Source: a virus
Strand: one strand, 5' to 3'
Virus record (IMG/VR): IMGVR_UViG_3300045412_000261
Location: 32,001-96,000 of that record
Length of the DNA stretch: 64,000 nucleotides
Shown here: one piece after another, positions 21,547 through 57,378 of the stretch
Numbering within the stretch: position 1 is the first letter of the stretch
Layout: every line of letters begins with the position of its first letter
Position numbers and translations under genes: made by a program
Notes under the pieces: generated by a model
Seen by the model: the letters and a program-made list of their open reading frames with translations, nothing else
The model's database searches: none
What the model was told of the DNA's origin: nothing

Positions 21547-23829
21547 TTAATACACTTGTCTTATAAAGGATACTAGTACATATCTAACTCCGGATATCAC
21601 AGGTCTAGCTCCATGTCTATGTGTTATTTGTCCAGGATGGATTGTTAATTCACCTATTTCTCCTTTAACTAACTTCTTTTGTTTTGAGAACCAAGTACCT
21701 CCTCCTTCGTATGCATCGTTTAGCGTTAACACAGTAGAAAATGCAGAATCGTCATGGTGTAAAGATAAATGTCCTTGATTTTCCGGTGTGTATTTTATAA
21801 TAAAGTTTTCCGAACTAAATTTTTTCCATTTATCTCCAGTAAGTACAAAATTAGATTTTACGAGGGGATATATGTAAGTATTTAAAAACATGTCATAAGC
21901 ATCATGTAATTGAAATTCATTGATTAACATGTCATGCGTTGGATAATAATAATGTCTATCTTTTGTCCATTTTCCGCACTCTTCTGCTAATCTTATAACT
22001 TCATTGCAAAATTCTTTTTTAAATGCGTGTAAATGTAAGACATCAGGTATAGGTTCGTCTACAATTAAATCATATTCTTTATTCTTTAATGCAGGATTGA
22101 TGTACATTGAAGACCATTTGTCTATGTCTTTTATTAGATAGATATTAGATGCAAATGAATTATTAGATGTTTTACTTGTTTTGGAATTACTTGTTTGACT
22201 TACTATACATTCTTTTAGACTGTATGCATTTATGTCTTTCCATATAAAATTTAAATCATTTCTTTCATTGTTATTTGAATATGTAGATGCTAAGAAATCA
22301 TCTAATGGTAAGATGTATTTTTCAAAGTTCTGTTCTAATATTCTTTCTATACCTAATTTTGATAACATGTAGGCATGAGATAACCATGAGTATCCCGGGG
22401 ATGTGTATATGGAGTTTGGTATGTCTTTGTCCCCGCCTAATTTTTGCCTACCGAGATATAAAAGACCCCAATCATATAAATCAATTTTTTCCGCGGGGAA
22501 CTCTACATCTACTTTAAAATCATCCTCCAAAATTAAAATAGATCCATAATTTTTCTTTTTAGCATCTTTCCATATAGATAAATGAGATAAAGCACATCCA
22601 ATCTCCCCGGGTAGTATATTCCGGTTATAATATGAATTACTGTGATTATTTATTTTCCAATCCTTATATAAAGACCAATCAAAATCTACTTTAGGATTTC
22701 TACCATCTACGGCCTTAAACAAATGAAATTCACCTGGTATAATACCTAACTTATTAAATTCGGAGGTGTATTTACTAATAGCTTCATCAGATACGTCAAA
22801 AGTAATTACATAGACAGCATCTATCTTTAATTTATTTTCCATGACATTATTATTTATAAAATTTTTAGCAATATTTAAAGGATTAAAAGCATCATATACA
22901 TTTAATTTAGATGTATTAGGATTAGTAAGCATTCTAAAATTATCATTCGACAATACACATGACAACCATGAATCAAAATCAATATAATCAAATATAGTCT
23001 CTTTCAATCCCGCTCTTAATCTTGTTATAGGAATCAATCCCAACATCTGCATTTCTACAGCTGACACACAAAATGTTTCATCGTAATTCGAAGGATATAA
23101 CCAATATTTTTTATTACTAGCAAAAGATATCAAATCACTCTTTTTCATGCAACCATAATAATATACATTTTTATACGTTGTAGTAACATGAGAGAAATGA
23201 CTATTATAAAACTCTTCTCCGTATTTAGGTGTAAGGATATACAGACATGATTGAGGTCTGTGATATAAAATCTGCCTCCAATGTGTTAAAATTTCTCTTA
23301 ATCCTCTTTCTGCATGTGATATATAAATGTAAGAATCTTGAATTTTAAATTTATCCGACTTTTCTATATGTTTTACCGCATTATATAAAACAATAGATGG
23401 AATGTTGGGAAAATGATTATCAAATTCTTTTTTATGATAATTAGATACGCAAATAACACTTTTAAACTTAGGATGATTAAATACCCTATCTTGTAATTCT
23501 GGTATATTATTTCCTTTGTAAAAATTATAGAAAAAAGGATCTGTGTTATGTATCCAAAAATAAGACTCATCGTAGCTAGTATCTGATATTAAGTCGATAT
23601 AATGCGTGTAATTTAGAGAAATTAATATGTCTGCTTGTAAATTATAGTCTTTTGTGTAAATAACTCCATTTAAGGCGTTCTCACGAACGATATCCCCTGT
23701 TATGAATACAGTATGCCCTAGGGACGATAAAGCCTCGGAGAAGTAACGTAAAGCCCATTCAGTGCCGGCGAAGTCATCTCCGCTGGCGTTAAAATTTGAG
23801 TAGTATCCAATATAAAACTTAATTGTCAT
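21547..23829 (-). CDS. Tri-domain protein: GT4-like glycosyltransferase + GT25 (collagen galactosyltransferase-like) + PLOD-type 2OG-Fe(II) lysyl hydroxylase
   Basis: aa 1-325: GTEWAL..LGHTV, VICVSNYHK, YPSNYDETFCVSAVE. aa 330-555: AVDGR, GEIGCALSH..IWK, ILEDD, WGLLYLGR, YSWLSHAYMLS, LPLDDFL. aa 565-760: EPIPDV..FCNEVI, YPTHD, FIIKYTPENQGHLSLHHDDS, YEGGGTWF, HPGQITHRHG..GVRYVLVSFI. Confidence 0.88.
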   Translation of the reverse strand: MTIKFYIGYYSNFNASGDDFAGTEWALRYFSEALSSLGHTVFITGDIVRENALNGVIYTKDYNLQADILISLNYTHYIDLISDTSYDESYFWIHNTDPFFYNFYKGNNIPELQDRVFNHPKFKSVICVSNYHKKEFDNHFPNIPSIVLYNAVKHIEKSDKFKIQDSYIYISHAERGLREILTHWRQILYHRPQSCLYILTPKYGEEFYNSHFSHVTTTYKNVYYYGCMKKSDLISFASNKKYWLYPSNYDETFCVSAVEMQMLGLIPITRLRAGLKETIFDYIDFDSWLSCVLSNDNFRMLTNPNTSKLNVYDAFNPLNIAKNFINNNVMENKLKIDAVYVITFDVSDEAISKYTSEFNKLGIIPGEFHLFKAVDGRNPKVDFDWSLYKDWKINNHSNSYYNRNILPGEIGCALSHLSIWKDAKKKNYGSILILEDDFKVDVEFPAEKIDLYDWGLLYLGRQKLGGDKDIPNSIYTSPGYSWLSHAYMLSKLGIERILEQNFEKYILPLDDFLASTYSNNNERNDLNFIWKDINAYSLKECIVSQTSNSKTSKTSNNSFASNIYLIKDIDKWSSMYINPALKNKEYDLIVDEPIPDVLHLHAFKKEFCNEVIRLAEECGKWTKDRHYYYPTHDMLINEFQLHDAYDMFLNTYIYPLVKSNFVLTGDKWKKFSSENFIIKYTPENQGHLSLHHDDSAFSTVLTLNDAYEGGGTWFSKQKKLVKGEIGELTIHPGQITHRHGARPVISGVRYVLVSFIRQVY

Positions 23830-30803: not shown

Positions 30804-32729
30804 TCACTCTAAATCTAATAAGTTATTTTCATTTAACAAATCTGAATCTATTACTTTTTCCTTTTCTTTAAATGATTTTTCTATAATCAGATTTTTATTT
30901 CCTATTTTACTATCAAATTGTCTTTTCAATGAATTGACTAATTTTGATTCTAAATTGACTGGATTTTCTCTTTTTCTAGCTATTAAAGGATTTTTTTCAC
31001 CTTCTAAATTAGATTTCATGTCCCTATCTCCCATAACGTCTCTACCATTAATCTTATCATCTTTTGTACCAAATGTACCTATTCTTTTAGGTCTTCCTCT
31101 ATTATCCTCTTTATCTACAAATTCTAATTCATCTCCATCATCAAATGTCATAGGGTTTATTTCATTTCCCTTAGATGCTAACTTTAACGTCATCATATCG
31201 TGAGGAGTGCCAAAACTTTGTCCAGATAGTTTAGGATCATTACCCTCTGTTTCTATTTGAGCATGTCTAAAGGATGTCATTAAATCTTCTATAATTAAAT
31301 CTTCCTCCGTCTGTCTTTCTGATTCCGATAATTTAAATAAATTCTCATGAATATATTTTCTAGAGAATAATTTAGAATCCTGCATAGTTAAGGCTAGATT
31401 CATTTTCTCTGTTAATATTTCTATTTTCTGTCTTTCATAAACTAAAGAAGGATTATTTAAAGATAATGAAAAATCTATCAATTCTTCATTTTTATATCCC
31501 TGAGTATATAAATGAATGATTGCAATTTTATTTAATTCTGATACAATTATTTTTTGAATTCTTTCTATAGTTCTAGCGAATCGAACATCTTCCGCTGCAA
31601 TCATAGATTTTCCTTCGGTATCTTTATCGTATCCTAAGAATGGTTTTGGTATTTTTAGGGCAGCCATCATTCTATTCCTAACATACTCAATATCATCCAT
31701 AAATCCTTGATTCCCTAATCCGGGTAAAGTGGATATTTCACTACTCGCATCTTTTCCTCTAACTGGTAAATAATAATCCTCCAACATGTTTTGAAGATTA
31801 AATTTTAAATTATAATCTCCTGTTCTCTCATCAACGTAAGGTGTTTTCTTCATTGATGATATAATAGTTGCCATGTAATTATCTACGTCAGTAGGAGGAA
31901 TACTACCAACATTAATTTTAAATACTCTTCTTTCCGGGGCTCTCATTATCCTATGGATTAACATAGCATCCTCCATTAAAGTAAGCATTTTAAAAATCTT
32001 TCTTGCTGGTTCTATCTGACTTCTACCATAAGGTAAAAAATTACTATCCGATAATAGTCTAAAATGAGCTACTTCATGATAATCTAATTCTTTATTTTTT
32101 CTTTCTTCATTTCTATAAATTATAGGGCTCATCTGTGTAGTATGCAATCCTTCGTATATAAATTTAACTTCATAAGGATTATGAGGGTTTGTGCCTTCTG
32201 TTCTCCTAACCTCGTAGGCGGAAAGAGGTATAACATTTTTAATTCCTAATCCTTCTTCTATATCCAAATACAAATAAAAATCTCCATACTTACACAAAGA
32301 TCTAGTCCAGCTCCAAAGATTATACTCTATGTTTAGTATGTCATAAAATAGATTATAAAGAATTTTTTTAATATTTTCGTTTGGAGTATTTATGTTTAGT
32401 AAATCTCCTTCCACGGACATTACGGTGCTTTCGTCTGCATAAATATCTAAGGCCGACGCAATAATAGGATCTGTGTCCATCGCTTCGTAATCTGTAAATA
32501 TTTGAAGCTTAGAGGAATGGAAGTTTATAGTATTGTTATTCGGAGAGTATCCGTACTGTCTAGTAGTATGTAGACCTGAAAATCTATCTACATAAGCTGT
32601 TTTTTCCTTTGCTCCAGCTCCTTGTAATCTAGAGGTGTCTATGACTTTTATACGATCTTTTCCTATCCTTCTAACTATGACTTGTGTAGAGAATAGTCTC
32701 TTTAGTTTTGCTTGTATTGAATTGTCCAT
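30804..32729 (-). CDS. Portal protein (gp20-like)
   Basis: DYEAMDTDPIIASALDIYADE, LMEDAMLIHRIMRAPERRVFKINVG, EDYYLPVRG, ISTLPG, ALKIPK, EDVRFARTIERIQ. Confidence 0.96.
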   Translation of the reverse strand: MDNSIQAKLKRLFSTQVIVRRIGKDRIKVIDTSRLQGAGAKEKTAYVDRFSGLHTTRQYGYSPNNNTINFHSSKLQIFTDYEAMDTDPIIASALDIYADESTVMSVEGDLLNINTPNENIKKILYNLFYDILNIEYNLWSWTRSLCKYGDFYLYLDIEEGLGIKNVIPLSAYEVRRTEGTNPHNPYEVKFIYEGLHTTQMSPIIYRNEERKNKELDYHEVAHFRLLSDSNFLPYGRSQIEPARKIFKMLTLMEDAMLIHRIMRAPERRVFKINVGSIPPTDVDNYMATIISSMKKTPYVDERTGDYNLKFNLQNMLEDYYLPVRGKDASSEISTLPGLGNQGFMDDIEYVRNRMMAALKIPKPFLGYDKDTEGKSMIAAEDVRFARTIERIQKIIVSELNKIAIIHLYTQGYKNEELIDFSLSLNNPSLVYERQKIEILTEKMNLALTMQDSKLFSRKYIHENLFKLSESERQTEEDLIIEDLMTSFRHAQIETEGNDPKLSGQSFGTPHDMMTLKLASKGNEINPMTFDDGDELEFVDKEDNRGRPKRIGTFGTKDDKINGRDVMGDRDMKSNLEGEKNPLIARKRENPVNLESKLVNSLKRQFDSKIGNKNLIIEKSFKEKEKVIDSDLLNENNLLDLE

Positions 32730-34314: not shown

Positions 34315-34933
34315 CTATATTTAAATCTTTTTCATTTATATTATATGTTTCCATAATTTCATTTTTTAAATCATTAAAATCTGATTTAATCTTTTCTAAA
34401 AATGATTCTTTATTTTCGATTGACCATTTTTCAATAGATCCATCCGCATTAGAATATCCCATGTTATCAAATGATCTTAATAAAACTTCTACTTCTTTGG
34501 CTGCTTCTTTTAAAAATGAAATGGCATTCTCTTTCTTTTTATCATGAACGTAAGAATCAAATTTTCCATTTAATTTCAATTCTGCTTCGTATTTTATTGT
34601 ACATTCCAAACATCTTCCTGTTTTTTTTCCTAATTTTATATCTGCTTGACCAAATACTTTACCTTCACATGTATCTAAGCAATTTGGAAATTTCTGTATT
34701 TCATCTAATTTTTTTAAGATTTCTCTAACTCCTTTTGCTCTTTTTACTTTATATCCATCTCTTTGTTCCCATTCTGTAACATCCCCCATTGGTGATACTT
34801 CTTCCCAAATATCTCCAACTTTTCTTATTTGTGAATCTTCTACTTTTCTATATCCAATCGTCGTTCTTTTTTGAGATTTATGTTCCCCAACTAGAAGTTT
34901 TTTTACAGCTTCTATATTTTTTAATTTACTCAT
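34301..34933 (-). CDS. Hypothetical protein upstream of TerL
   Basis: 210 aa with [19 protein letters not shown] and Cys pairs (CLDTC, CLEC). Confidence 0.55.
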
Positions 34934-37900
34934 GATTTTCTCCTTTTTCTAGTTTTGTAACTCTTTTATTTAAATCTTTTACCAAATCATATAGCTCTTG
35001 AATAGCTTTTAAATTATACACCGATAGTTTATCATAGTTAACAGCTAGTACTCCTTTTTGTCCCTCTATCTTAAACTCTTTTAATAATCCTGTTTTAAGG
35101 CCATCGGTTATATCTTGAGCTATAATACCTACTTCTTTATCGTTTACATTAGAAGGAACTCTATGAGATGTTGAATTTTTGTTAACTTCTAATATGACTC
35201 CTTTTAATTCATCCGTGTTCCAATTATAATTAACAGGTTTTATGCTATATAGTTGTTCTAGCACAGGATCTATTTCTTCTATATCCTTTTTTAGCCTTCT
35301 ATCCGAGAATGCTGCAAATGGTCCGCCTATGCCTCTCTCTCCTTTTTGTCCCTTTTGTCCTGTAGGACCGGTAGGACCGGTAGGACCCGTTGGACCGGCA
35401 GGACCCGGAGGGCCGGCAGGACCCGTAGGTCCCGGGGAGCCCGGTAGACCCGTGGGGCCGGTGTTTCCTGTTGGTCCGGTAAGTCCGGTAGGACCTGTTG
35501 GTCCGGTAGGGCCTAAATCTCCTTTAGATCCCTTAGCCCCAACTCCGGCTAATCCTGGGAATCCTATTTCACCCTTTTGTCCCTTAGGTCCGGGGCTTCC
35601 CGTATTTCCTTTAGGGCCTGGAATATTGCTAGGATTTCCGGCTGATCCCTTTGGTCCCGGCCCTCCAGGAGGACCTATTTCACCCTTTTGTCCCTTAGGT
35701 CCGGGGCTTCCCGTATTTCCTTTAGGGCCTGGAATATTGCTAGGATTTCCGGCTGATCCCTTTGGTCCCGGCCCTCCAGAAGGACCTATTTCACCCTTTT
35801 GTCCTTTAGACCCTGTATTTCCTGTGTTTCCTTTAGGGCCTGTTAGGCCAATATCTCCCTTACTTCCTTTATATCCTTTATACCCAATTTCACCTTTGCT
35901 TCCCTTGCTACCTGTAGGACCGGGAATAAAACTAGGATTTCCTTGAGGTCCTATGTCGCCTTTGTCACCCTTACTTCCGGAAAATCCGATTGAACCTATG
36001 TCTCCTTTATTGCCCTTGTCTCCTTTATATCCTTTATATCCAATTTCTCCTTTACTTCCTTTGAAATCACCTTTACTTCCTTTATCACCCTTACTTCCTT
36101 TATCACCTTTACTTCCGGATGGTCCTGGAGGACCTATTTTAGAACTTGGTATAGGAGATGGACTAGGTGACGGTGCAAAAACCCCTATACTCTCCGGAGA
36201 TGACATATTATGTACTAATATGTCTTCAACAAAAAAGTTTTGATTTTTCTCTACACTTAAATTGTATACAGTGCTTGATGTTGCGTATGAAAAAATAGTG
36301 GATATCTTTTCATAAGACAATGTTTTATAATTAAATAGTTCATCATTTATCGATAAATCCTTAGCTTTTTTCCAATATTTGTCATACCATCCTTTAACAT
36401 AAAAGGGATGCTCTTCGGTGCATTGTATGTCATTATTTATTACGTATAAATAATTTGCTTTTCCTACATGTTTGTATATTATTGTATCTTCTTGTAAGAT
36501 TTTGTTATCTATATCATAAGACATGATTGATTGTCCTATTGTAACTTCCTCTATTGTTATATAGCTATTATTTGCTGTTAATATCTTAGTAGATGGTATA
36601 AAGCAAGTAGGGCCTATAGATCCTGAAAATCCTTTGTCTCCTTTATCACCTTTACTTCCAGAAGGGCCAATAGAACCCGAAGGGCCGATAGGACCTGGAA
36701 TAAAACTAGGATTTCCTTGCGGTCCTAATTCTCCCTTTTGTCCCTTAGATCCAATATTTCCCTTAGATCCAATATTTCCCTTAGGTCCAATATTTCCCTT
36801 AGGTCCAGTATTACCTGTATTTCCCTTAGGACCGGGGATAAAACTAGGATTTCCTTGCGGTCCTGTATTGCCTTTATCACCTTTACTTCCAGAAGGGCCA
36901 ATAGAACCCGAAGGGCCGATAGGACCTGGAATAAAACTAGGATTTCCTTGCGGTCCTAATTCTCCCTTTTGTCCCTTAGATCCAATATTTCCCTTAGATC
37001 CAATATTTCCCTTAGGTCCAATATTTCCCTTAGGTCCAGTATTACCTGTATTTCCCTTAGGACCGGGGATAAAACTAGGATTTCCTTGCGGTCCTGTATT
37101 GCCTTTATCACCTTTACTTCCAGAAGGACCGGTAAATCCTAAGTTTCCTTTTTGTCCCTTAAGTCCTATAGATCCTTTATCTCCCTTACTTCCCGACGCT
37201 CCTATGGGACCTTTTTCCCCTCCACCGGCGATAGATACAAAACCTTTAAAACATTCTCCAAAAGTTATTTGAATTGTATTTTCATCTATTGCCGTGTAAT
37301 TTTCAGGTATAACTGAATTCCCGTCATATGAATATATAGTAAAAACAGGATATTCGATTCCTGTTCCGTGATTAACTGTAATAACATTACAACTATTCAG
37401 AGAACCTGTAAATACAGTGTTTCCAATTTCTCCTTTAGATCCGCTATTACCCTTTAACCCTGGATTTCCTTTAGGGCCTATATCTCCCTTATCTCCTTTT
37501 GTTGAAGAACTTGCTATTAATGCTTGAAATGCAGGACTACTGTTAAATGTATTTATTAAAAGTTGTTCATCAATAGTAACGTCAATATTAACTTTTACTC
37601 CATAAACTGTCGTGGAAAAATTAGCAGAGACTCCAATAACATTTAAATACTCTATTTCAAAAATATACTCAGTGTCTATTTTAGCTATTGGTAAATTATC
37701 TAAGGGAATATCTAAACAAAATTCATTAGGAGTTCCTCCATCAGATGCACTTGGGAAGATATCAATATCAGAGACATTCCATTGTCCTGCATTAATAATA
37801 AAGTTAGGTTTTATATTATCTTCTGAAGTAGCTTTAAATGTAAAAGTCTTTTTAATTTCAGACTTGTTATTACCTCCTATTATAGATCCTAAAAAAGTTC

Positions 37901-39536
37901 CAAATGAATTCCTTTCAGCTGTACTAGAAAGAGATGATGCATTTACTTGATTTACAGATAATGGAGATTTTTCTATATCAGGTCCTTGAATATAAATGTC
38001 AAGCTGCGGTGTCTTTCCATTAGCATCTTTTTCAGAAAATGCGGATATTTGTACGGTATATTCAGTATTAGGAACAGATTTAGATAAAAAAGAATCCTTT
38101 ATCGTTATATTTACTACCTCATTTTCTTGTTTATTGTGCTGTACGCCTAAGGCATTTACTAAATTTCCACTATTTGCGGAAGTAGTTATTCCTCCTGTTC
38201 CTATGTTCTCATATGAGGAATTCTGTTTTCTAAACTTATTTATATCAAAATAACTAGATATATCAGAATTATCTTTTATATCCCCCAATTTCTTATTTTC
38301 TATTCCTCCATTAGCAGAGAATGTATAAGAAGATGGATCAGTTAATTTACTAGTTTTTGGGATTTTAAATTCTCCTAAACTAACAGGACTTCCTACACCT
38401 CCTGCTGCTTTAGCCGAAACTTTTACTCTATCAACATCTCCCGAAATGGGTTTTGCATTTTTTACACATATTTTAGCATATCCTGTTTTCTTTTGTCCAT
38501 CGCTTGTATCCGGACTCTTGAAATAGTCTATACATATATTTGATGCTTCAAATTTAGTTATGTAAATTTCTGCGGATTCTTTTTTCTTATTTACGTATGA
38601 TTGCCTATAAAAAAATTGCTTATCTACTTTTATTTGAGTACTACTAATCACTTCTACAATAGTCGCAGTATAAGAAGGGACTGTAGGAGAATATCCAGAA
38701 GGTAAATCTCCGGGTAAATATTTAGAAATGTCAGGGGTTAAGGAAATGGTTCCTTTTTCCATTTCTTTCTTAAAGGGAGCTCCTGTATTGGCTACTATGG
38801 TGCTAAGATTATTAGCATCTGTTGTTATAGAAACGTTTCCAGAGTTAGCTAAACTTCCGGATGTATTTACCGTAGGGGTAGATTCTATAGGCACTCCCTC
38901 AAATAATTCCGGTATATTAGAGGAATAATTGGATGAATATTGAGATGGTGGAGCAGATGAAACAAAAGATAAACTAACAGCGTGGCAGCTTCCTGTAGCC
39001 CTACTTCCGGAAAAATTTTGAAAAGCTCTTGTTTCAGGAGTCAAATCAACTTTAGGAGGTATTGTATATTTAATATCCCCTATTGTTTTTTTCTTTGTAT
39101 TTACGAGTAAGCTACCAACCCATATGATATTAGGAGAAGATAAATTTGTTAATTTTTTACTTCTTAATACGTCATAATTGGCTGTACCTGCTATGTAAAT
39201 TTCACATTTTCCTATGGGTACGTTATCTCCTATATTAACAGTTACAATAGCAGAACCATTGGCATTTGCGGCATTCTTTATTTCGTGAGGGATTAAATTA
39301 CCTTCTGAATCATAAACTTCAACAAAAACTTGAGTTCCTTTTACTAAATTTTGCGTGGGGTTAATTCCAATCTCATTAGCTCCTTTTAAAAATTCACTAG
39401 GTAATGATAATCCAAAATAATTAGAACTTAAAGCATCACCATCAAACAAAGTAAACTCATTTATATAGCTCTTTATTCCAGAACTAGTCAATCTTTTATT
39501 TTCTTCAGATGATGGTGATGTTAATCCAAAAGCCAT
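34926..39536 (-). CDS. Collagen-like tail fibre with an internal Hint domain and C-terminal peptidase S74 (intramolecular chaperone)
   Basis: About 680-aa beta-rich N-terminus, two long Gly-X-Y tracts, Hint domain CFIPSTKI...ILVHN, and C-terminal [10 protein letters not shown]...KPVNYNW...GIIAQD...VNYDKL...AIQEL. Confidence 0.88.
35563..35804. repeat. 111-bp (37-codon) near-perfect tandem duplication in the collagen tract
   Basis: Unit starting CCTATTTCACCCTTTTGTCC recurs at 35563, 35674 and 35785. Confidence 0.9.
36207..36605 (-). other. Hint (intein/BIL-like) domain, 133 aa, no homing endonuclease
   Basis: Starts at Cys (CFIPSTKI), block B CTEEHPF, block [23 protein letters not shown]; the +1 residue is Met. 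Confidence 0.9.
36640..37127. repeat. 231-bp (77-codon) perfect tandem duplication in the collagen tract
   Basis: Unit starting CCTTTATCACCTTTACTTCCAGAAGG recurs at 36640, 36871 and 37102. Confidence 0.92.
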
Positions 39537-39539
39537 TTA

Positions 39540-42500
39540 TTATGATATTAATTGAGAATGTCCGTTTTCCTTTACAATAAATAGTTCTTTTGATACATAA
39601 TCTTTAACTACATCTAAATGTGATATGCATAATATAAATCTAAAATATGATGTGAGCTCTTCTAAGAATAATCCTACATTAGCTATATTGTCAGAATCTA
39701 ATACACCAAATCCTTCATCTATAAAAAAGAAATCAGGTTTTGGAAGTACAGTAACATGATTTAATGCTGCTCTAATGGCTAAAGATGATATAAATTTCTC
39801 CATGCCAGAAGCTAATGAAAGAGGCCATTTAGGTCCATTTATGTAGCATATATAAACTTCTAATGTTTTATCAGATAACTCAAATTGAACATTGAATGCT
39901 GCTACATTTTTTAAAGCATCATTTACTACATTTTCTAAAACAGGTAAATAGTTTTTAATAATGAAAAGAGGAATTCCATCTCTTCTAGTCGCTTTCTCAA
40001 AAACAAAGTAATTATTATAAGTCAAAGTGTCATCTTTGAACTTTTTCATTTTTAATTTTATGTCTTTAATTTTTGATTCGTTGCTAGTTACTGTAGATTT
40101 ATGTCCACCTATAGTATAAGCTAATTGATATATAGCGTCATCTATTGATTTTTTTTCATCTAGTAACTTAGTTATTTCACTTTCTATTTCAGAGTTCTTT
40201 TGCTTTATATCTTTATATGACTCCTGTTCTTTTAATTTCTCGGAATAATCTAAAATTAAGTTTTTTGAGATTTGTATTTTCTCTTTTATAATATTTGCTT
40301 GATTTTCTATATTGTCCAAATTAGATTTTAGTTTATCTGCTTCGACTTTCTTGTCCTTGTATTTTTTATATAAGGAATCCGATATTTCTAAGTGCTCTAT
40401 ATGTTCTGCTACTTCTTTTTTATTTTGTTTTAGTTTATCTAGTTTTTCAGACAATCCAGGTAATTCTTTTTTAGCCTTTTCCCCATCTAATGCATACTTG
40501 TTGTTTTTTACACAATATACACAGTTAGGATCGTGCTCATAATCTTGTAGATGTTCAATTAATTTATTACTAGATTTTATTTCAGATTCCGTTACAGCTA
40601 TGTCTCTGTCAAGATCAGATAGTTTTTTTCTCACTTCAACTAGATTAGAAGATACATCAACTCTTTCTCCTATATCTTCTAACTCAGATAAATGAGATTT
40701 AAGGGCATTTCTAGCTTCTATAAAAGACTTTCTCTTATCGTCTAAGGATGAACTAAGCATATCTTCATTTCGCCTCTCTGCGTCTATTTTTGTGGCATAA
40801 TCTATATTTTCTTTAGGGTGATGAATTAATTCTTTTCTTTTGTCCTCAATTTTTACATATAGTGCATTAGAATTCTTTTTATTTAGTTCTAAGCTATCTT
40901 CTACTTGAGATAATTTAGTTCTAATTTCTGCTATATTATTTTCACACTCCGTTAAAGATTCATTATACTTTTGCTTTTGGTGGTTCTCAATTTCATATTT
41001 CAATTGCTTCAGATGTTCCTTAGATGTATCATTTAGCTTTTCAAATATATCTATATCAAAATACTTGTATAATAAGTCTTTTTTATCTTTTTGAGTCTTA
41101 TCAATAAAATCAGATTTATTATGTTGATCATACATCGTTATAAGCATAAAATTCTCATAACTTCCTAAATACTTTCTAATAATATCATTCGTCTCATATC
41201 TTTGCTCTCCATTTAAAGAAGTTCCGTCTTCTTTATAAAAATTAACAAGTACTTTTACCTTTCCGTCTTTTCCTTTTTTACCATGTCTTTCTATAAAGTA
41301 AGATTCTCCGGAAACAGATAATTCTAATCTACAATAAAACTCGGTAGATGATGTATTCAGTACCTCCGATCCTAGGCTTGTCTTACTACATTTATCAAAA
41401 ATACAATAAGTCATAGCATCTAGTAATGTGGATTTACCAGAGGCATTTGGTGAAAATAATCCGACAAGTCCACCTAATTCTCCTAGATTGAATACATTAC
41501 CTTCTCCGTATGAAAACATGTTAGAAAATTCAAATCGTATAGGTTTCCAAGTCACGCCTATAAATTCAGAAGGTTCGTCTAATTCTAAAGATGCTGTTTT
41601 ATGTATATCTAAAAACTTATCTGCTTGATATTCCTGTTTTAATTCATTTTGCACATAGTTTTCTAGCATCGAATGTCTCCAATCAAAATCTCTTATAATG
41701 TTTTCTTTTTCTAATGATACTTCCCCTTTGCCTGTATCAACTATGAATTTCGTTATTTTAGGCTTCTTTATTCGGATAACATTATATTTTTTCTCTAATC
41801 CTAAACAAAATGAATCTATAAATTCTTGAGTACAATTTTCGGCAGTGATTGCTACATTAAGATTATAAGGTAAATCTCCAGGTATTTTTTCTACTAATTT
41901 ATCATTCTTTAATTTAAATGTATAATAACAATGAGAAGATGGAATTTTAATAAACTCACTTTTTTTCTTATTTAAATCCCATTCTATAATTCCATGTGTT
42001 AAATCTTCTCCGAAGTTCTGTTGTATCAAACTAGATGGATAAGCTGCTGTTCTTTCTAAATTGAGATATTGATGTTTATGAATGTCCCCTAATAAAATAT
42101 AATCATAATCTGCATGTTCTAATACATCTAAATAATTTCCTTCTAATAGATATCCGTATGCTGTTGCCGAATTTTTTACCGGTCCATGATACAATAATAT
42201 TTTTGTGTCTGCATCAAAAGATTTTGCGGGGATTACATTTTCAATTTTATCTTTAACATGTAATAAACTAAATGCTATTTGTTCATATTTATATACATTT
42301 GTTTCATTCAAGAAATGTATTGTAGGTAAATCTAAACTTTTTATAATGGGAGTTAATGCATCTAATCTTGTTCTATTATTTAGATTTAAGTCATGGTTTC
42401 CTAATATTACTATTGTAGGAAGCATGTTTGCTAATGTAGATAATAATGTAGATACCACTGAGAATAATTCTGGAGACATGTTTGTTTTTGAATGTACGAT

Positions 42501-42671
42501 ATCCCCGCCCAAAAATATAATAGAATTGGGAGTCATTCTTTTCTCAATGATTTTATACAATTTCTCAAACACTTCTATGTATTCTTCATGTCTTTGATAA
42601 TTATAAACATGAATATCTGAAATGTGAAAAATTTTATCGACTTTTCTTCCCGTGTCCTTTAATAGAATCAT
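39540..42671 (-). CDS. Fused Mre11/SbcD nuclease - Rad50/SbcC ATPase (gp47-gp46 fusion)
   Basis: N-terminal metallophosphoesterase (SDIH, GGDIVH, GNHD, LGDIHK), then Walker A SPNASGKST, a coiled coil with a CVYC hook, signature ASGMEKF, Walker B FIDEGFGVLD and ISH. Confidence 0.92.
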   Translation of the reverse strand: MILLKDTGRKVDKIFHISDIHVYNYQRHEEYIEVFEKLYKIIEKRMTPNSIIFLGGDIVHSKTNMSPELFSVVSTLLSTLANMLPTIVILGNHDLNLNNRTRLDALTPIIKSLDLPTIHFLNETNVYKYEQIAFSLLHVKDKIENVIPAKSFDADTKILLYHGPVKNSATAYGYLLEGNYLDVLEHADYDYILLGDIHKHQYLNLERTAAYPSSLIQQNFGEDLTHGIIEWDLNKKKSEFIKIPSSHCYYTFKLKNDKLVEKIPGDLPYNLNVAITAENCTQEFIDSFCLGLEKKYNVIRIKKPKITKFIVDTGKGEVSLEKENIIRDFDWRHSMLENYVQNELKQEYQADKFLDIHKTASLELDEPSEFIGVTWKPIRFEFSNMFSYGEGNVFNLGELGGLVGLFSPNASGKSTLLDAMTYCIFDKCSKTSLGSEVLNTSSTEFYCRLELSVSGESYFIERHGKKGKDGKVKVLVNFYKEDGTSLNGEQRYETNDIIRKYLGSYENFMLITMYDQHNKSDFIDKTQKDKKDLLYKYFDIDIFEKLNDTSKEHLKQLKYEIENHQKQKYNESLTECENNIAEIRTKLSQVEDSLELNKKNSNALYVKIEDKRKELIHHPKENIDYATKIDAERRNEDMLSSSLDDKRKSFIEARNALKSHLSELEDIGERVDVSSNLVEVRKKLSDLDRDIAVTESEIKSSNKLIEHLQDYEHDPNCVYCVKNNKYALDGEKAKKELPGLSEKLDKLKQNKKEVAEHIEHLEISDSLYKKYKDKKVEADKLKSNLDNIENQANIIKEKIQISKNLILDYSEKLKEQESYKDIKQKNSEIESEITKLLDEKKSIDDAIYQLAYTIGGHKSTVTSNESKIKDIKLKMKKFKDDTLTYNNYFVFEKATRRDGIPLFIIKNYLPVLENVVNDALKNVAAFNVQFELSDKTLEVYICYINGPKWPLSLASGMEKFISSLAIRAALNHVTVLPKPDFFFIDEGFGVLDSDNIANVGLFLEELTSYFRFILCISHLDVVKDYVSKELFIVKENGHSQLIS

Positions 42672-53700: not shown

Positions 53701-55237
53701 CTAGTTTATATAGCCAAAGATTACTTAATTGATATCCATTATTTACTTCCCATCCTAATGATTTCGCATAAGTTTTTAAAAGCTCATTAGGAATTCCTCT
53801 TTTAGGATGTTCATCTCTTCTATGAATAGAAGTAAGTTCTTTAGTAAAAGCATATAAATTATCAAAGTGCTGTCCTATCATATCAAGAAAAACAAAATAT
53901 TCGGAGTTGTCCGGATTGTTTACGATATGACCAGGAGTAGCTTCATATAAGGTATTATAATTTCTACTATCGAATCTACTAGCTTTTGATAAAGAAGATG
54001 AATACCAATAATTGTATGCAGAAGATGTTATATGATAGTTATAATACTTATTGTTTGATATATACTTAGGAGCCGGGGTAATGCTTCCTGTTATGTCATA
54101 AGAAAAAATACTACCAGAAGAATAGTACAAATAATTCTCAAATTCATCAAAACTATTTTTAACCTGATAAGACCTTTTTATTATTTTGTTATAATCAGCA
54201 ATACCAAACAGACTCCCCGAACCATTGCTATTTTTTATCGCATTACTTTGGCTATTATAAAATTCTATTAACTGTAATTTATAATTATAATTCTTTAATC
54301 TTTCTTGAGCAGATCCATAAAATACAAAATTAGAAAAATCAGAATAGTCTATATTTAAAGGAACAGAAGCGGAGGATGATATAACTCTGTTTATTATAGT
54401 GTTGGCTGTTTCATACTTTGAATCCAATAAAGTATCCCAATAGTGATAAATATTTTCATCTTTTGAAGGCAATAAACTATTCCATGTACTATAATTAGTA
54501 GATTCTCCGCTAGTTGTATTTATCGAATAATTTGGAGTTAAAGTTCTAGGTTCACTAACTACTTCAGGGGATGTAACAGTAAATGAATCAAAATAATCTT
54601 CTGCTACTTTATAGCATATATGAAGTAGATTTCCTGTTTTTAAATTTTCTACAGGATTAAATAATTTAACATAAATTACATATTCATCTTCACAATCTAC
54701 TTTTATATTTATAATTGAATAAATTTTATTCTCCCCTAAATTTATTACAATATTATTAATAAATCCTAATGTTCTTAAATAAGATGCTTTTTCTTTAAAT
54801 AACTCTAATTTATTTATTATATCGGGATTATTTTTTAGGTAATTAGGCCTTATTGCTAATTTTAATTCTAACTCATCCGGACTTATTTCTTGAATATAAA
54901 AATATTGATTATCTATATCACCAAAAATATTATACAAAAAATTAAAACATAATTTATAAGTTCCTTCAAATATTTCAGAATCAAAAAATAATTTACATAC
55001 ATCAAAATTTATATCATCATAAGTAGAATCAAAATCATTTCTTACATTATAAGCAGATTTAACTAAATCATAGTTTGTATTATAAATGTGAGAATCTATT
55101 GAAAATGGATTTTTTATATCATCCACTATTCCTTTTGATATATCTAAACTCATAAATGGTTCATAATCAAATGATACTCCTTCAATTAATGATGATGAAT
55201 CCTTTATTTTATCTTTATTTATGAATCTATCTATCAT
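50780..55237 (-). CDS. Large baseplate wedge protein (gp7 / tail protein I-like)
   Basis: FLDMIGQHFD, LAKSLGW-like segment, LLKTKGTERSLKTLLSIYG, IKQLVPARANL; lies in the baseplate cluster. Confidence 0.6.
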   Translation of the reverse strand: MIDRFINKDKIKDSSSLIEGVSFDYEPFMSLDISKGIVDDIKNPFSIDSHIYNTNYDLVKSAYNVRNDFDSTYDDINFDVCKLFFDSEIFEGTYKLCFNFLYNIFGDIDNQYFYIQEISPDELELKLAIRPNYLKNNPDIINKLELFKEKASYLRTLGFINNIVINLGENKIYSIINIKVDCEDEYVIYVKLFNPVENLKTGNLLHICYKVAEDYFDSFTVTSPEVVSEPRTLTPNYSINTTSGESTNYSTWNSLLPSKDENIYHYWDTLLDSKYETANTIINRVISSSASVPLNIDYSDFSNFVFYGSAQERLKNYNYKLQLIEFYNSQSNAIKNSNGSGSLFGIADYNKIIKRSYQVKNSFDEFENYLYYSSGSIFSYDITGSITPAPKYISNNKYYNYHITSSAYNYWYSSSLSKASRFDSRNYNTLYEATPGHIVNNPDNSEYFVFLDMIGQHFDNLYAFTKELTSIHRRDEHPKRGIPNELLKTYAKSLGWEVNNGYQLSNLWLYKLGTDNTGSFLETGTLASQAHEYLTHQIWRRIVNNIPTLLKTKGTERSLKTLLSIYGIPQTLISIKEYGGARPPKYNPTHKSYRYQYLLKFDGNQFVKIPWGQSIPPNENQVSAPRVSEFRFRTTNSSSLSMSLWSIEDSKNSNKVYNNLELVSYRAFSTSSRSGSYAYGYLRYKSAQSTSNSTSSFTIKTIQSKYYPFFDGDAWNVRIYTDRNISNTKKTGSIHIEWKKSSGDFENWISFSGSMIVTSSADISFTWGSTSSLLIPHNIILGGSTGSQFAGVNSSRYRGFLQAYKDYSDIYSEKIFEEHTLNPAAYHGSSYTSSFDTLNRFYPMGVDALRYNHSAYKFVSSSHPNRVKSQYTTASFIGFTGSQENQYKPYSEIYYSYSPSIGASIVKSDKIRIEESFYTNQLSSEKRVQINTFDTDPVDSNKLAVVFSPTDQVNRDIANQYGGIDLDNLIGDPSDLYRDEYNNLRLNRENYWKKYKNRNNYNKYIEIFSLYDYSIFEQIKQLVPARANLIAGILLEENVLERAKVARKNPSLTNPQYEKTIIKTDSQVGEYILYTGSISYAPPVEISHKKYTSSLEFDIAPDFEQIKYSTNTEMPPDLELEYRKYKSELPISITPDFKHEKITSTLNYYGDYSLVFSDLESHKVNQKGNLYEFGGDTYLYKYENLIDISEINRDMSNIYSISDLGTLEHIKGNIHLLNTNEENDITSNMESLYYFDNERKLIESYATLNRHLSFIGNVLHGSGSIEENIAYRFKRNGTYKNRVLNRRKINFYDGNTNVISNDFKLDSSFYKIENIVGKVTNFNIDNFYNDNNSYNYVLSSSFHNFNSTLTKLQLKEYLYKNEYVINDAGNIYRNSSYVTQSIIQSEKSNLKYKKVVYHYSSSTAVNYSSQYQKNLNLATLINTKNYYSSSLVPANYQYVEDSVSNRIRFTGCKLTGLDFNVDTTDTIDGGPVVEYREVSANQIIV

Positions 55238-57378
55238 ATTTGATTATTGAATTGATTTTGATTATTTACAATATTTGAATAATCTGCAAACTCTATAGTA
55301 TTACCGGGAATCCCAGAACCGTAAACTCTATCTCCTGTTCTGTCAGACCCGCCGGTTCCTCCTGTATCTCCTCCTCCTGTACTTCCACCTGTTCCCCCAC
55401 CGGTATTACCTCCTGTTCCATTACCACCACCAGTATTACCTCCTGTTGTAGAACATTCTAAATTGCCTATTTCTATATTAACACTAGTTACTTTTCTACT
55501 TCCTAATTCTGTTTCATTGATAGTCATTGAGCCACCTCTATATTGATAAGTTTTATAGGAAGTCAGACCTGTAGTTAGTGTTGCTATTTGACCTACTATA
55601 TCTATTTTTTGATATGTGTAAATAACTTCTCCTTGTCCGTCACATGGATGTAACGCATATATAGTTACATCTTTTCCACCAGAAGGTCCGGAACCACCAC
55701 CGACTTGAAGACAACTAGTTATCCCTTCCGCTTTTCTAAGTGATGTAAATAAAGTAATTCCATTAACTGTCTTTAAAAATTCAGGATTTGATCCGTCCCA
55801 ATAATAAAAACCCTGATTAATAATATTGAAATATATTTGATTTCTTAATGGCTCAACAGAAGTATAGCCAGGACCTTTACTAGGATCACAAGAATAAACT
55901 TTCCAATATCTATTACCTGCTCCGGTACCAGTACCTGTTCCTGTGCCTACATTTATTGTAGTAGTGGTACTTGTGGTAGAAGTAGTACTTGTAGTAGAAG
56001 TAGTACTTGTAGTAGAAGTAGTACTTGTAGTATTTCCGGTACCTACATTTATTGTAGTTGTGCTTGTAGTAGATGTAGTACTTGTATTATCTTTTGGACA
56101 TTCAGGACAAATAGAATTAGTTCCGGATGCTCCAGTTGGTCCAGCAGGTCCTTGAGGGCCTAGCCCGCCAGGTTGACCATTCTGTCCGGGTTGTCCATTT
56201 TGCCCACTTGGTCCTGTTGGTCCTGTGTTACCAGGCTGTCCGATTGGTCCAATAGGTCCTGTTGGTCCAATAGGTCCAGCAGGTCCAGCAGGTCCGGGTT
56301 GCCCGTCCCTTCCATCTCTTCCATCTCTTCCAGCAGGTCCAGGTAATCCACTACCTCCACCAATTACATTCAATCCATCTTTACCATCTTTGCCAGGTCT
56401 TCCTTCAGAACCGCTAACAATTATAACAATAGGTTCCTTGTCTTCGCAGCAGTTGGACGGTATGTTGTTTATAATTGGAACAACAGGGTCAATAATGTTT
56501 CTTACTTTTTTCCTAACCGCAGGTGTCCATGATGAAGATAAATCAACACAATTTCCATTATTGTTAGTGTTTATAAAATAGTATGTATATCCTTCTAATG
56601 GTCTTGCTCCAACTTCTGCAATCTTAACAAAAGTTCCTAATGGGTAAGTAGATAATTCAGAGAAATCTACTCGTTCAATAGATATTACATCGTTATATGT
56701 TTTATTTCTCTCAAACATCATAACTTCCAATGTCTCGTTATTTGGAATAAGACATACAGAAATATCAGTCAATGCTTGTTCATTTGCTCCAATAAAATAG
56801 TTGAAATTTGCGTCGATTAATTTAGATATAACAAAGTCAGAAACAATTACTTTTTCAGGCCTAACAAAATAATACCCGGGGTCTACCGATAGACTTGTTC
56901 CTTGTAATTTATAGCTTATAGGAACGTATTTTATTCCTTTGAGATTTACTTTTAATTTTGGTTTGTTTGCTTTACTTATATCTTCGGAGGAGTATCTATT
57001 TTTATTCTGTCCTTCGATTTCAGGAATTCTTTCATTTATTGTTCCAAATATTACTTTTTCTACATTTCCCTCATATCTTCTAATAATCTTATAATTTATG
57101 TAATCATCATTTGAGTCAGATGTCAATATAACATTTTTAGGGATTGGAAGAGTTATTTCTAATTTATTATTTACATTTAATGCATCTCCAATTTTTATTA
57201 ATTCTTTAGATTCTGCCGTGGTAAATCTTCCAGACATATATTTCACAAACTCATCTACATGATATTGACCTTTATAGATGTCTCCATTTAAATAAGTAAA
57301 TTCACCATTAGATAAATTAGGACCTGTTCTTCTATTATTAGGGTCAGATACTCTATGTATGTCTTTCTTTTCCTCCAC
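55234..57378 (-). CDS. Second collagen-containing virion protein with a Thr/Ser-rich tract
   Basis: Gly-X-Y run (GRPGKDGKDG...GPAGPTGASG), (TTS)n tract, Cys-containing domains and a Gly/Thr tail. Confidence 0.75.
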   Translation of the reverse strand: MEEKKDIHRVSDPNNRRTGPNLSNGEFTYLNGDIYKGQYHVDEFVKYMSGRFTTAESKELIKIGDALNVNNKLEITLPIPKNVILTSDSNDDYINYKIIRRYEGNVEKVIFGTINERIPEIEGQNKNRYSSEDISKANKPKLKVNLKGIKYVPISYKLQGTSLSVDPGYYFVRPEKVIVSDFVISKLIDANFNYFIGANEQALTDISVCLIPNNETLEVMMFERNKTYNDVISIERVDFSELSTYPLGTFVKIAEVGARPLEGYTYYFINTNNNGNCVDLSSSWTPAVRKKVRNIIDPVVPIINNIPSNCCEDKEPIVIIVSGSEGRPGKDGKDGLNVIGGGSGLPGPAGRDGRDGRDGQPGPAGPAGPIGPTGPIGPIGQPGNTGPTGPSGQNGQPGQNGQPGGLGPQGPAGPTGASGTNSICPECPKDNTSTTSTTSTTTINVGTGNTTSTTSTTSTTSTTSTTSTTSTTTTINVGTGTGTGTGAGNRYWKVYSCDPSKGPGYTSVEPLRNQIYFNIINQGFYYWDGSNPEFLKTVNGITLFTSLRKAEGITSCLQVGGGSGPSGGKDVTIYALHPCDGQGEVIYTYQKIDIVGQIATLTTGLTSYKTYQYRGGSMTINETELGSRKVTSVNIEIGNLECSTTGGNTGGGNGTGGNTGGGTGGSTGGGDTGGTGGSDRTGDRVYGSGIPGNTIEFADYSNIVNNQNQFNNQI
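55958..56085. repeat. 9/18-bp degenerate tandem repeat encoding (TTS)n
   Basis: GTAGAAGTAGTACTTGTA units on the plus strand. Confidence 0.8.

Follow-up and report, generated by a model that had tools for sequence, protein, structure and literature searches.

The 64,000-nucleotide stretch analysed here, referred to as the window, comprises positions 32,001 to 96,000 of the IMG/VR virus record IMGVR_UViG_3300045412_000261. Its minus strand carries a gene for a collagen-like fibre of 1536 amino acids (aa) (P0001, 34926..39536) and, separately, a gene for a 760-aa protein (P0002, 21547..23829) in which two glycosyltransferase domains are joined to a PLOD-type lysyl hydroxylase (LH) domain. The locus raises the question of whether the phage modifies the lysines of its own fibre. 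X-Lys-Gly is the context required by collagen lysyl hydroxylases. The fibre has its collagen lysines in this context, and its genome also encodes a cognate hydroxylase, which is linked to such collagens in other genomes. Judged from sequence comparison, the fibre, and probably a third collagen encoded outside the window, is the substrate of the 760-aa enzyme with a probability of roughly 0.7.

The fibre contains 158 Gly-X-Y triplets arranged in 12 runs. The Y position is occupied by lysine in 59 triplets (37%), by threonine in 27, by isoleucine in 24, and by proline in 18, while the X position contains no lysine. The commonest lysine triplets are GSK (19), GPK (14), GDK (10), GQK (8), GYK (4), and GLK (2). 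All 59 of the collagen-run lysines are in Y and glycine follows in every case. With 59 lysines in Y against none in X, the placement of lysine is non-random. The lysine content of the fibre outside its collagen runs is 8%. The preliminary description had reported dozens of triplets with lysine in Y and a particular GXK run within 35330-37500, a span that corresponds to the collagen part of the fibre (residues about 680-1402); both the triplets and the run are present.

The genome encodes two further collagens. The second collagen-like protein (55234..57378, minus strand) is 714 aa in length, belongs to a baseplate/tail-fibre module, and is recognised by Pfam Collagen (E 8.6e-9) and by PHROG tail-fibre matches. 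It was previously said to use mostly GPA, GPT, GRD, and GQP triplets, and this is borne out by its 36-42 triplets, which are mostly GPA, GQP, GRD, GPI, and GPT, with 0-1 lysines in Y and 2 in X. The third collagen is 1187 aa in length and lies beyond the end of the window (genome positions 100846..104409, plus strand). It has lysine in Y in 39 of 84 triplets (46%) and none in X. This protein contains several copies of a globular domain of about 65 aa that the fibre has once (residues 708-772), and a Gly-rich C-terminal region. Two of the three collagens of the genome are rich in Y-position lysine, and the second is nearly lysine-free.

Two tandem duplications were found within the fibre. A 231-bp unit is repeated 2.1 times at 100% identity (36640-37127, collagen block 2) and a 111-bp unit is repeated 2.5 times at 94% identity (35563-35842, collagen block 3). 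Removal of the duplicated copies costs about 15 of the 59 lysines and leaves the share of lysine in Y near 37% (hand count). The duplications raise the raw lysine count and not the proportion. The length of the stalk is evidently changing through recent repeat expansion.

The phage's own lysyl hydroxylase, on which the preliminary description depended, is present in the window as the C-terminal portion of the 760-aa protein, the proposed modifier of the fibre. The PLOD-type domain (residues 570-756; 21562..22122, minus strand) matches human LH3 (E 2.2e-22) and the mimivirus enzyme L230 (6ax6, E 8.6e-19). Residues H691, D693, H739, and R749 align with H667, D669, H719, and R729 of LH3, which are the Fe2+ triad (H-x-D...H) and the arginine that binds 2-oxoglutarate (2OG); they are invariant or nearly invariant among homologues. 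The domain is predicted to have lysyl 5-hydroxylase activity.

Upstream of the hydroxylase domain in the protein is a COLGALT1-like GT25 domain (residues about 335-547; 22189..22827, minus strand; Pfam PF01755, E 3.6e-16). The catalytic GT2 domain of human COLGALT1 can be aligned with it (E 5e-14), LEDDF of the phage sequence lying over the human FEDDL. The Glu-Asp-Asp motif of COLGALT1 binds the catalytic Mn2+ (PMC12003778). The predicted activity of this domain is the transfer of a hexose to hydroxylysine.

The N-terminal domain (residues 1-329; 22843..23829, minus strand) gave no match in a sequence search of the PDB, and its identity was resolved by a fold search. The AlphaFold2 model has a mean pLDDT (predicted local distance difference test) of 89.5. 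The top Foldseek matches are retaining GT4/GT5 enzymes, with an alpha-1,2-glucosyltransferase first and glycogen synthase and PimA also present. E251 and E259 are invariant in 15 homologues and have E-x7-E spacing, which we take to be the defining GT4 motif. The model identifies residues 1-329 as a GT4-type retaining glycosyltransferase domain of the GT-B fold.

The enzyme gene is located among late structural genes, next to PhoH and a capsid gene. No signal peptide is evident, so the enzyme is expected to act in the host cytoplasm. In PHROGs, the hydroxylase domain matches families labelled 'DNA endonuclease' and 'ferrochelatase', names that seem mistaken and under which the enzyme would go unnoticed in phage annotation.

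Collagens linked to the enzyme in other viral genomes

A protein search with the enzyme returned 92 clusters, made up of three-domain forms, GT25-LH forms with two domains, and forms from giant viruses. Relatives are encoded by at least 242 viral contigs. From these, 80 enzyme loci were examined and sorted into 23 lineages at 70% identity, and every collagen-like open reading frame (ORF) was tabulated. Where no collagen was present within 10 kb of the enzyme, the whole record was searched. All 18 lineages with enough sequence have a collagen with Y-position lysine in the same record; short fragments make up the remaining five. The median share of lysine in Y among the enzyme-linked lineages is 18%. 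In total, 1495 of 7370 triplets have lysine in Y and 7 of 7370 have it in X.

The two genes are frequently neighbours. Upstream sequence of 4 kb or more is available for 16 lineages, and in 10 of them a collagen ORF on the same strand ends 38-2170 bp upstream of the enzyme gene. Both records that are at least 90% complete encode giant collagens (2374 and 1649 aa, with lysine at 45% and 54% of Y positions), which abut the enzyme gene across contig ends. One cassette (L026, IMG/VR 3300043442_000437) has the order 1904-aa collagen, DUF6445, GT4-GT25-LH enzyme, and P4H-like 2OG-FeII_Oxy_3, with the DUF6445 gene at L026:9450-10004 and the 2OG-FeII_Oxy_3 gene at L026:12331-12930. This suggests a wider collagen-modification cassette in other lineages, and prolyl hydroxylation may be included. 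Neither flanking gene was found in the genome of the window, which is 82% complete; the DUF6445 search matched no control genome either.

The pairing of enzyme and fibre is also seen in four cultured phages. In the Synechococcus phages S-CAM9, S-PRM1, and S-8S55, the gene order is conserved and consists of a protein annotated as a tail fibre (about 1830 aa), a small ORF, a pair of 2OG oxygenases, and a GT25-LH protein of about 615 aa. Their fibres contain collagen segments such as GQKGEKGQKGEKGQKG, with 22-24 lysines in Y among 55-59 triplets and none in X. Read from its translation, the fibre of S-CAM9 has an S74-type motif, SDRRLKDNI, at its end. In the Roseobacter phage CRP-6, tail fibre gp60 has lysine in Y in 26 of 99 triplets, and gp58, two genes downstream, has the hydroxylase domain.

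An unbiased control sample was drawn using a pattern that fixes only the glycine codons of 12 consecutive triplets, giving 77 viral loci. The collagens in this sample have a median of 1.2% and a mean of 5.8% lysine in Y, exceed 30% in one case only, and have lysine in X in 95 of 5033 triplets. A weak hydroxylase-like match was present in only 2 of the 71 control records that could be searched. Enzyme-linked collagens have more Y-position lysine than the unbiased controls (Mann-Whitney p 5e-7) and than the controls with a GC content of at most 0.42 (median 3%; p 4e-5), both p values being indicative only. Among relatives by capsid that lack the enzyme, immuto and LR756508 have no collagen, and Mel-JY01 has a GTS/GSS collagen with no lysine in about 180 triplets. 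The comparison of phage genomes supports the earlier suggestion that the enzyme and its presumed substrate are encoded together.

Lysine context and alternative explanations

Co-occurrence of the enzyme with GXK-rich collagens had been proposed as a check, and it stands in one direction only. The presence of the enzyme predicts a collagen with Y-position lysine, as described above. For the converse, a search for five consecutive GXK triplets returned 77 collagen-like ORFs, and a hydroxylase was found in 1 of 75 of these records and in 0 of 21 near-complete genomes. GXK runs alone do not predict the enzyme. The collagens of this kind that lack the enzyme are short (median 28 triplets) and are nearly all (GDK)n or (GEK)n, with a median of 92% of their Y-position lysines standing before Gly-Asp/Glu.

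The failure of the converse prediction led to an analysis of the residues that follow each lysine. Lys-Gly-Asp/Glu is the context of stabilising interchain Lys-Asp/Glu pairs in collagen peptides. Among the unbiased controls with at least five lysines in Y (n=15), the median fraction of these followed by Gly-Asp/Glu is 0.89. The enzyme-linked lineages (n=18) have a median of 0.18 and a range of 0-0.46, except for one at 0.8 that has 5 lysines. The difference between the two groups has a p value of 1.6e-5, to be read with the same reserve as those above. The window fibre is at 0.41, the third collagen at 0.33, and the fibres of the cultured phages at 0.27-0.35; the fibre and the third collagen both lie within the enzyme-linked range. 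Two classes of lysine-bearing phage collagen can thus be told apart, and the window fibre falls in the enzyme-linked class; a sizeable minority of its lysines may form salt bridges as well. Richness in GXK, which the preliminary description took as the sign of a hydroxylase substrate, is common without the enzyme and is not diagnostic by itself. A better signature is lysine in Y only and mostly without a following Gly-Asp/Glu.

Two further groups of sequences were noted during this comparison. Five fragments with lysine-rich collagens of varied context (L280, L289, L298, L305, and L326) each encode, close to the collagen gene, a stand-alone 2OG oxygenase of about 200 aa. The similarity of these oxygenases to the core of the hydroxylase is weak (E 1e-5 to 1e-10), and they may be split or alternative hydroxylases. 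Two of the few lysine-rich unbiased controls, L112 and L120, are giant-virus bins. No Y-position lysine of L112 stands before Gly-Asp/Glu, a pattern that would fit an L230-type system there.

Several observations weigh against modification of the fibre by the 760-aa enzyme. In addition to the failed converse prediction, the enzyme gene in the window phage is not adjacent to the fibre gene and is 11 kb away from it. A phage whose enzyme is 87% identical has a fibre with lysine in only 13% of Y positions (26 of 196), where glutamine is dominant; high lysine density is thus not required and evolves quickly. Some enzyme-linked collagens have lysine in only 6-9% of Y positions, yet these amount to tens of sites, all of them in Y. 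Many of the viral records are fragmentary and the lineages share ancestry, hence the reserve about p values. Finally, the 41% of fibre Y-position lysines that stand in the Lys-Gly-Asp/Glu context are a 2.5-fold excess over the background frequency of Asp/Glu in X, which indicates that electrostatic stabilisation accounts for part of the fibre pattern.

This last point bears on the alternative that survives best, although it is held to be unlikely. The Y-position lysines may serve only to stabilise the triple helix through interchain Lys-Gly-Asp/Glu salt bridges, as in collagens that lack hydroxyproline; they would then be unmodified, and the enzyme would act elsewhere. The 24 of 59 fibre lysines before Gly-Asp/Glu, compared with Asp/Glu at 16% of X positions overall, are in keeping with such a role. 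So are the wide occurrence of (GDK)n and (GEK)n collagens in phages that lack the enzyme and the 73% of Y-position lysines that have this context in the unbiased controls. The remaining 59% of the fibre lysines are outside the salt-bridge context, however, and the value for the fibre is below that of nearly all controls. Salt bridges also leave unexplained the excess of lysine in collagens adjacent to the enzyme over other phage collagens. Both roles can coexist, and GXKG(E/D) is itself a known hydroxylation and glycosylation motif in adiponectin and the collectins.

A different target for the enzyme is improbable. It could modify only the third collagen, or a host or envelope component, and the lysine pattern of the fibre would then be unrelated to it. 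The third collagen is even richer in Y-position lysine than the fibre, bacterial GT25 enzymes often act on lipopolysaccharide (according to the Pfam description), and the distance between the two genes in the window phage agrees with this possibility. The fusion to a PLOD-type domain and the conserved place of the enzyme next to collagen fibre genes, seen in cultured phages as well as in 10 of 16 lineages, argue instead for collagen fibres as the class of target. The window fibre has the lysine signature of enzyme-adjacent fibres, and the fibre and the third collagen cannot be distinguished as substrates.

The proposal that the lysine richness is a by-product of an AT-rich genome (about 31% GC, favouring AAA/AAG codons) and of recent tandem duplication fits the GC content across the window (0.28-0.36) and the perfect 231-bp and near-perfect 111-bp duplications, which multiply lysine-bearing units, but it is very improbable and was rejected, being contradicted by internal controls (the nearly lysine-free Y positions of the second collagen in the same genome, the absence of lysine in X in the fibre, the 8% lysine of its non-collagen part against 37% of Y positions, and the persistence of about 37% without the duplicated copies) and by GC-matched control collagens, which are still lysine-poor.

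Fibre architecture, genome setting and proposed pathway

The fibre is recognised by the Pfam families Collagen, Hint, and Peptidase_S74, and Collagen (PF01391) matches it in 7 stretches (E 1.2e-56). The N-terminal region (residues 1-680; 37497..39536, minus strand, as for all parts of the fibre) is not collagenous and is presumed to be the virion-attachment part. It has no Pfam or PHROG match, and a tblastn search of cultured phages with these 680 aa gave a single weak match, in Mel-JY01 (E 1e-4), and no close cultured relative.

Collagen run 1 (residues 681-707; 37416..37496) is composed of 9 triplets by tabulation. It is followed by the globular insert of about 65 aa (residues 708-772; 37221..37415), which was recognised by reading the translation, resembles the inserts repeated in the third collagen, and has no family match in Pfam. 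Collagen block 2 (residues 773-977; 36606..37220) contains five Gly-X-Y runs separated by SFIP breaks and is rich in GPK, GSK, and GQK.

A Hint (intein-like) domain of 133 aa (residues 978-1110; 36207..36605) sits between collagen blocks 2 and 3. The Pfam match spans residues 993-1110, and the scores for Intein_splicing (E 1.2e-7) and PT-HINT (E 5e-5) are both under the curated cut-offs. The first residue of the domain is Cys, and the last residues are HN followed by Met instead of Cys, Ser, or Thr. This ending suggests self-cleavage rather than splicing. A Pro/Ser linker (residues 1111-1134) separates the Hint domain from collagen block 3 (residues 1135-1407; 35316..36134), which includes the long GXK run and has a lysine-poor, GPT-rich end.

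The C-terminal Peptidase_S74 (chaperone-of-endosialidase) domain (34929..35306, with the Pfam match at residues 1411-1476) scores over the cut-off (PF13884, E 1.3e-9) and contains the motif SDRRLKKDI. It is presumed to be the trimerisation nucleus and to cut itself off. Long Gly-X-Y repeats with an adjoining trimerisation domain are the features of a collagen-like triple-helix protein, and a triple helix is predicted for the fibre on these two grounds.

The window is part of a 142,581-bp record estimated to be 82% complete, with a GC content of about 31% overall. The source virus is an uncultured T4-like myovirus. Recognisable T4-like genes include a gp23-type capsid, a gp20-type portal, TerL, sheath, tube, baseplate wedge, gp32, UvsX/RecA, PhoH, and an Mre11-Rad50 fusion. 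With the capsids of Flavobacterium phage 'immuto' and Microcystis phage Mel-JY01, the capsid protein shares 54-60% identity. Nearly all genes of the window are on the minus strand. The Mre11-Rad50 fusion (39540-42671, minus strand) is a single ORF of 1043 aa in which an Mre11-like phosphoesterase is joined to a Rad50/SbcC-like ATPase; T4 encodes the two separately, as gp47 and gp46.

We infer the chemistry of fibre hydroxylation and glycosylation, the identity of the sugars, and the order of events as follows. Late in infection, unfolded fibre chains would be modified in the host cytoplasm. The C-terminal PLOD-type domain, using Fe2+, 2OG, and O2, would convert lysine in X-Lys-Gly to hydroxylysine. 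The inverting GT25 domain, with Mn2+ bound at its EDD motif, would then transfer the first hexose onto the new hydroxyl, and the GT4-type retaining domain would possibly add a second, alpha-linked sugar. The S74 chaperone domain would trimerise the modified chains into a triple helix and cut itself off. The outcome would be a virion with a glycosylated collagen stalk, and the benefit may lie in stability, hydration, shielding, or adhesion.

Comparison with known systems

To our knowledge, the glycosylation of collagen hydroxylysines is considered a feature of animals, and mimivirus is its one viral precedent. It appears reasonably probable from the comparisons made here that hydroxylysine-glycosylated collagen is a routine material of virion fibres in the tailed phages of marine and aquatic bacteria, made with a single polypeptide that combines an animal-type lysyl hydroxylase and hydroxylysine glycosyltransferase with a further sugar transferase. 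If so, this 'animal' modification would be widespread and possibly old among phages, the lysine pattern of a fibre could be read as a map of glycosylation sites, and the question of how collagen-modifying enzymes arose would be affected. An entire class of modification of phage fibres would have been overlooked, its enzymes being annotated as hypothetical proteins, as lipopolysaccharide glycosyltransferases, or wrongly as DNA endonuclease or ferrochelatase. The contrast between salt-bridge and enzyme-linked lysines would provide a sequence rule for predicting modified phage collagens, and compact enzymes compatible with the bacterial cytoplasm could be useful for producing modified recombinant collagen.

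According to a 2022 review, most prokaryotic collagens are neither hydroxylated nor glycosylated, and the collagens of phages are treated in it as short (PMC8968730). Other dioxygenase families have been predicted to modify bacterial collagen-like proteins, and no PLOD-type phage system was described there (Iyer et al. 2010; PMC2938197). The combination of collagen with an S74 domain has been described (PMC12220804). No paper that pairs a PLOD/GT25 enzyme of a phage with a collagen fibre was found in a full-text literature search.

The closest precedent is mimivirus L230, which hydroxylates lysine in viral collagen-like proteins and glucosylates the product, with hydroxylysine found in virions (PMC9614988). 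The mimivirus collagens often have lysine in the Y position, and, as L230 shows, the sugar used by a viral GT25-like domain may be glucose instead of galactose (PMC9614988). Hydroxylysine was also formed when L230 and the mimivirus collagen L71 were co-expressed in E. coli (PMC9546862), which indicates that such modification is feasible in a bacterial cell. As in the window, mimivirus encodes a PLOD-type hydroxylase fused to a GT25-like transferase along with its own lysine-bearing collagens (L71 and R240), and the hydroxylase domains are homologous. Mimivirus is a giant virus of amoebae, whereas the window belongs to a tailed phage of a bacterium. The domain order of L230 is GT25-like followed by LH, and the window enzyme is GT4-GT25-LH with an extra retaining GT4 domain. 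The proposed substrate also differs: it is a fibre that has an S74 chaperone and contains a Hint insert, and its chemistry is predicted from sequence.

In the animal pathway, lysine is converted to hydroxylysine, galactosyl-hydroxylysine, and glucosyl-galactosyl-hydroxylysine by LH3/PLOD3 and COLGALT1 (GLT25D1). The hydroxylase and GT25 domains are homologous to those of the window enzyme, and the Fe/2OG residues, the EDD motif, and the X-Lys-Gly acceptor are shared. In animals the GT-A domain of LH3 attaches the second sugar, unlike in the window, where the candidate is an unrelated GT-B/GT4 domain. The animal pathway is located in the endoplasmic reticulum; the window activities are on one 760-aa polypeptide without a signal peptide and are expected in the bacterial cytoplasm.

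The (GDK)n and (GEK)n fibres of phages without the enzyme share the Gly-X-Y stalk, the Y-position lysine, and often the same S74 domain. They differ from the window fibre in being short, in having about 90% of their lysine in the salt-bridge context, and in lacking a PLOD-type enzyme, whereas the window fibre is long and its lysines stand in varied contexts.

The nearest cultured counterparts are the S-CAM9 cassette from gp222 to gp218 (also present in S-PRM1 and S-8S55) and gp60/gp58 of CRP-6. In these phages, a fibre with lysine in Y in 26-44% of triplets and none in X stands beside a GT25-LH or LH protein. Unlike the window enzyme, the enzymes of all four lack the GT4 domain. The cyanophages have two small 2OG oxygenases between the fibre and enzyme genes, in contrast to the 11-kb separation in the window phage. 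In the cultured-phage cassettes, the genes carry no annotation beyond hypothetical protein or 2OG-Fe(II) oxygenase. Relative to these systems, what appears to be new here is the probable use in tailed phages of the collagen lysine-modification chemistry of animals and mimivirus, the GT4-GT25-LH fusion, and an S74-capped fibre as the putative substrate.

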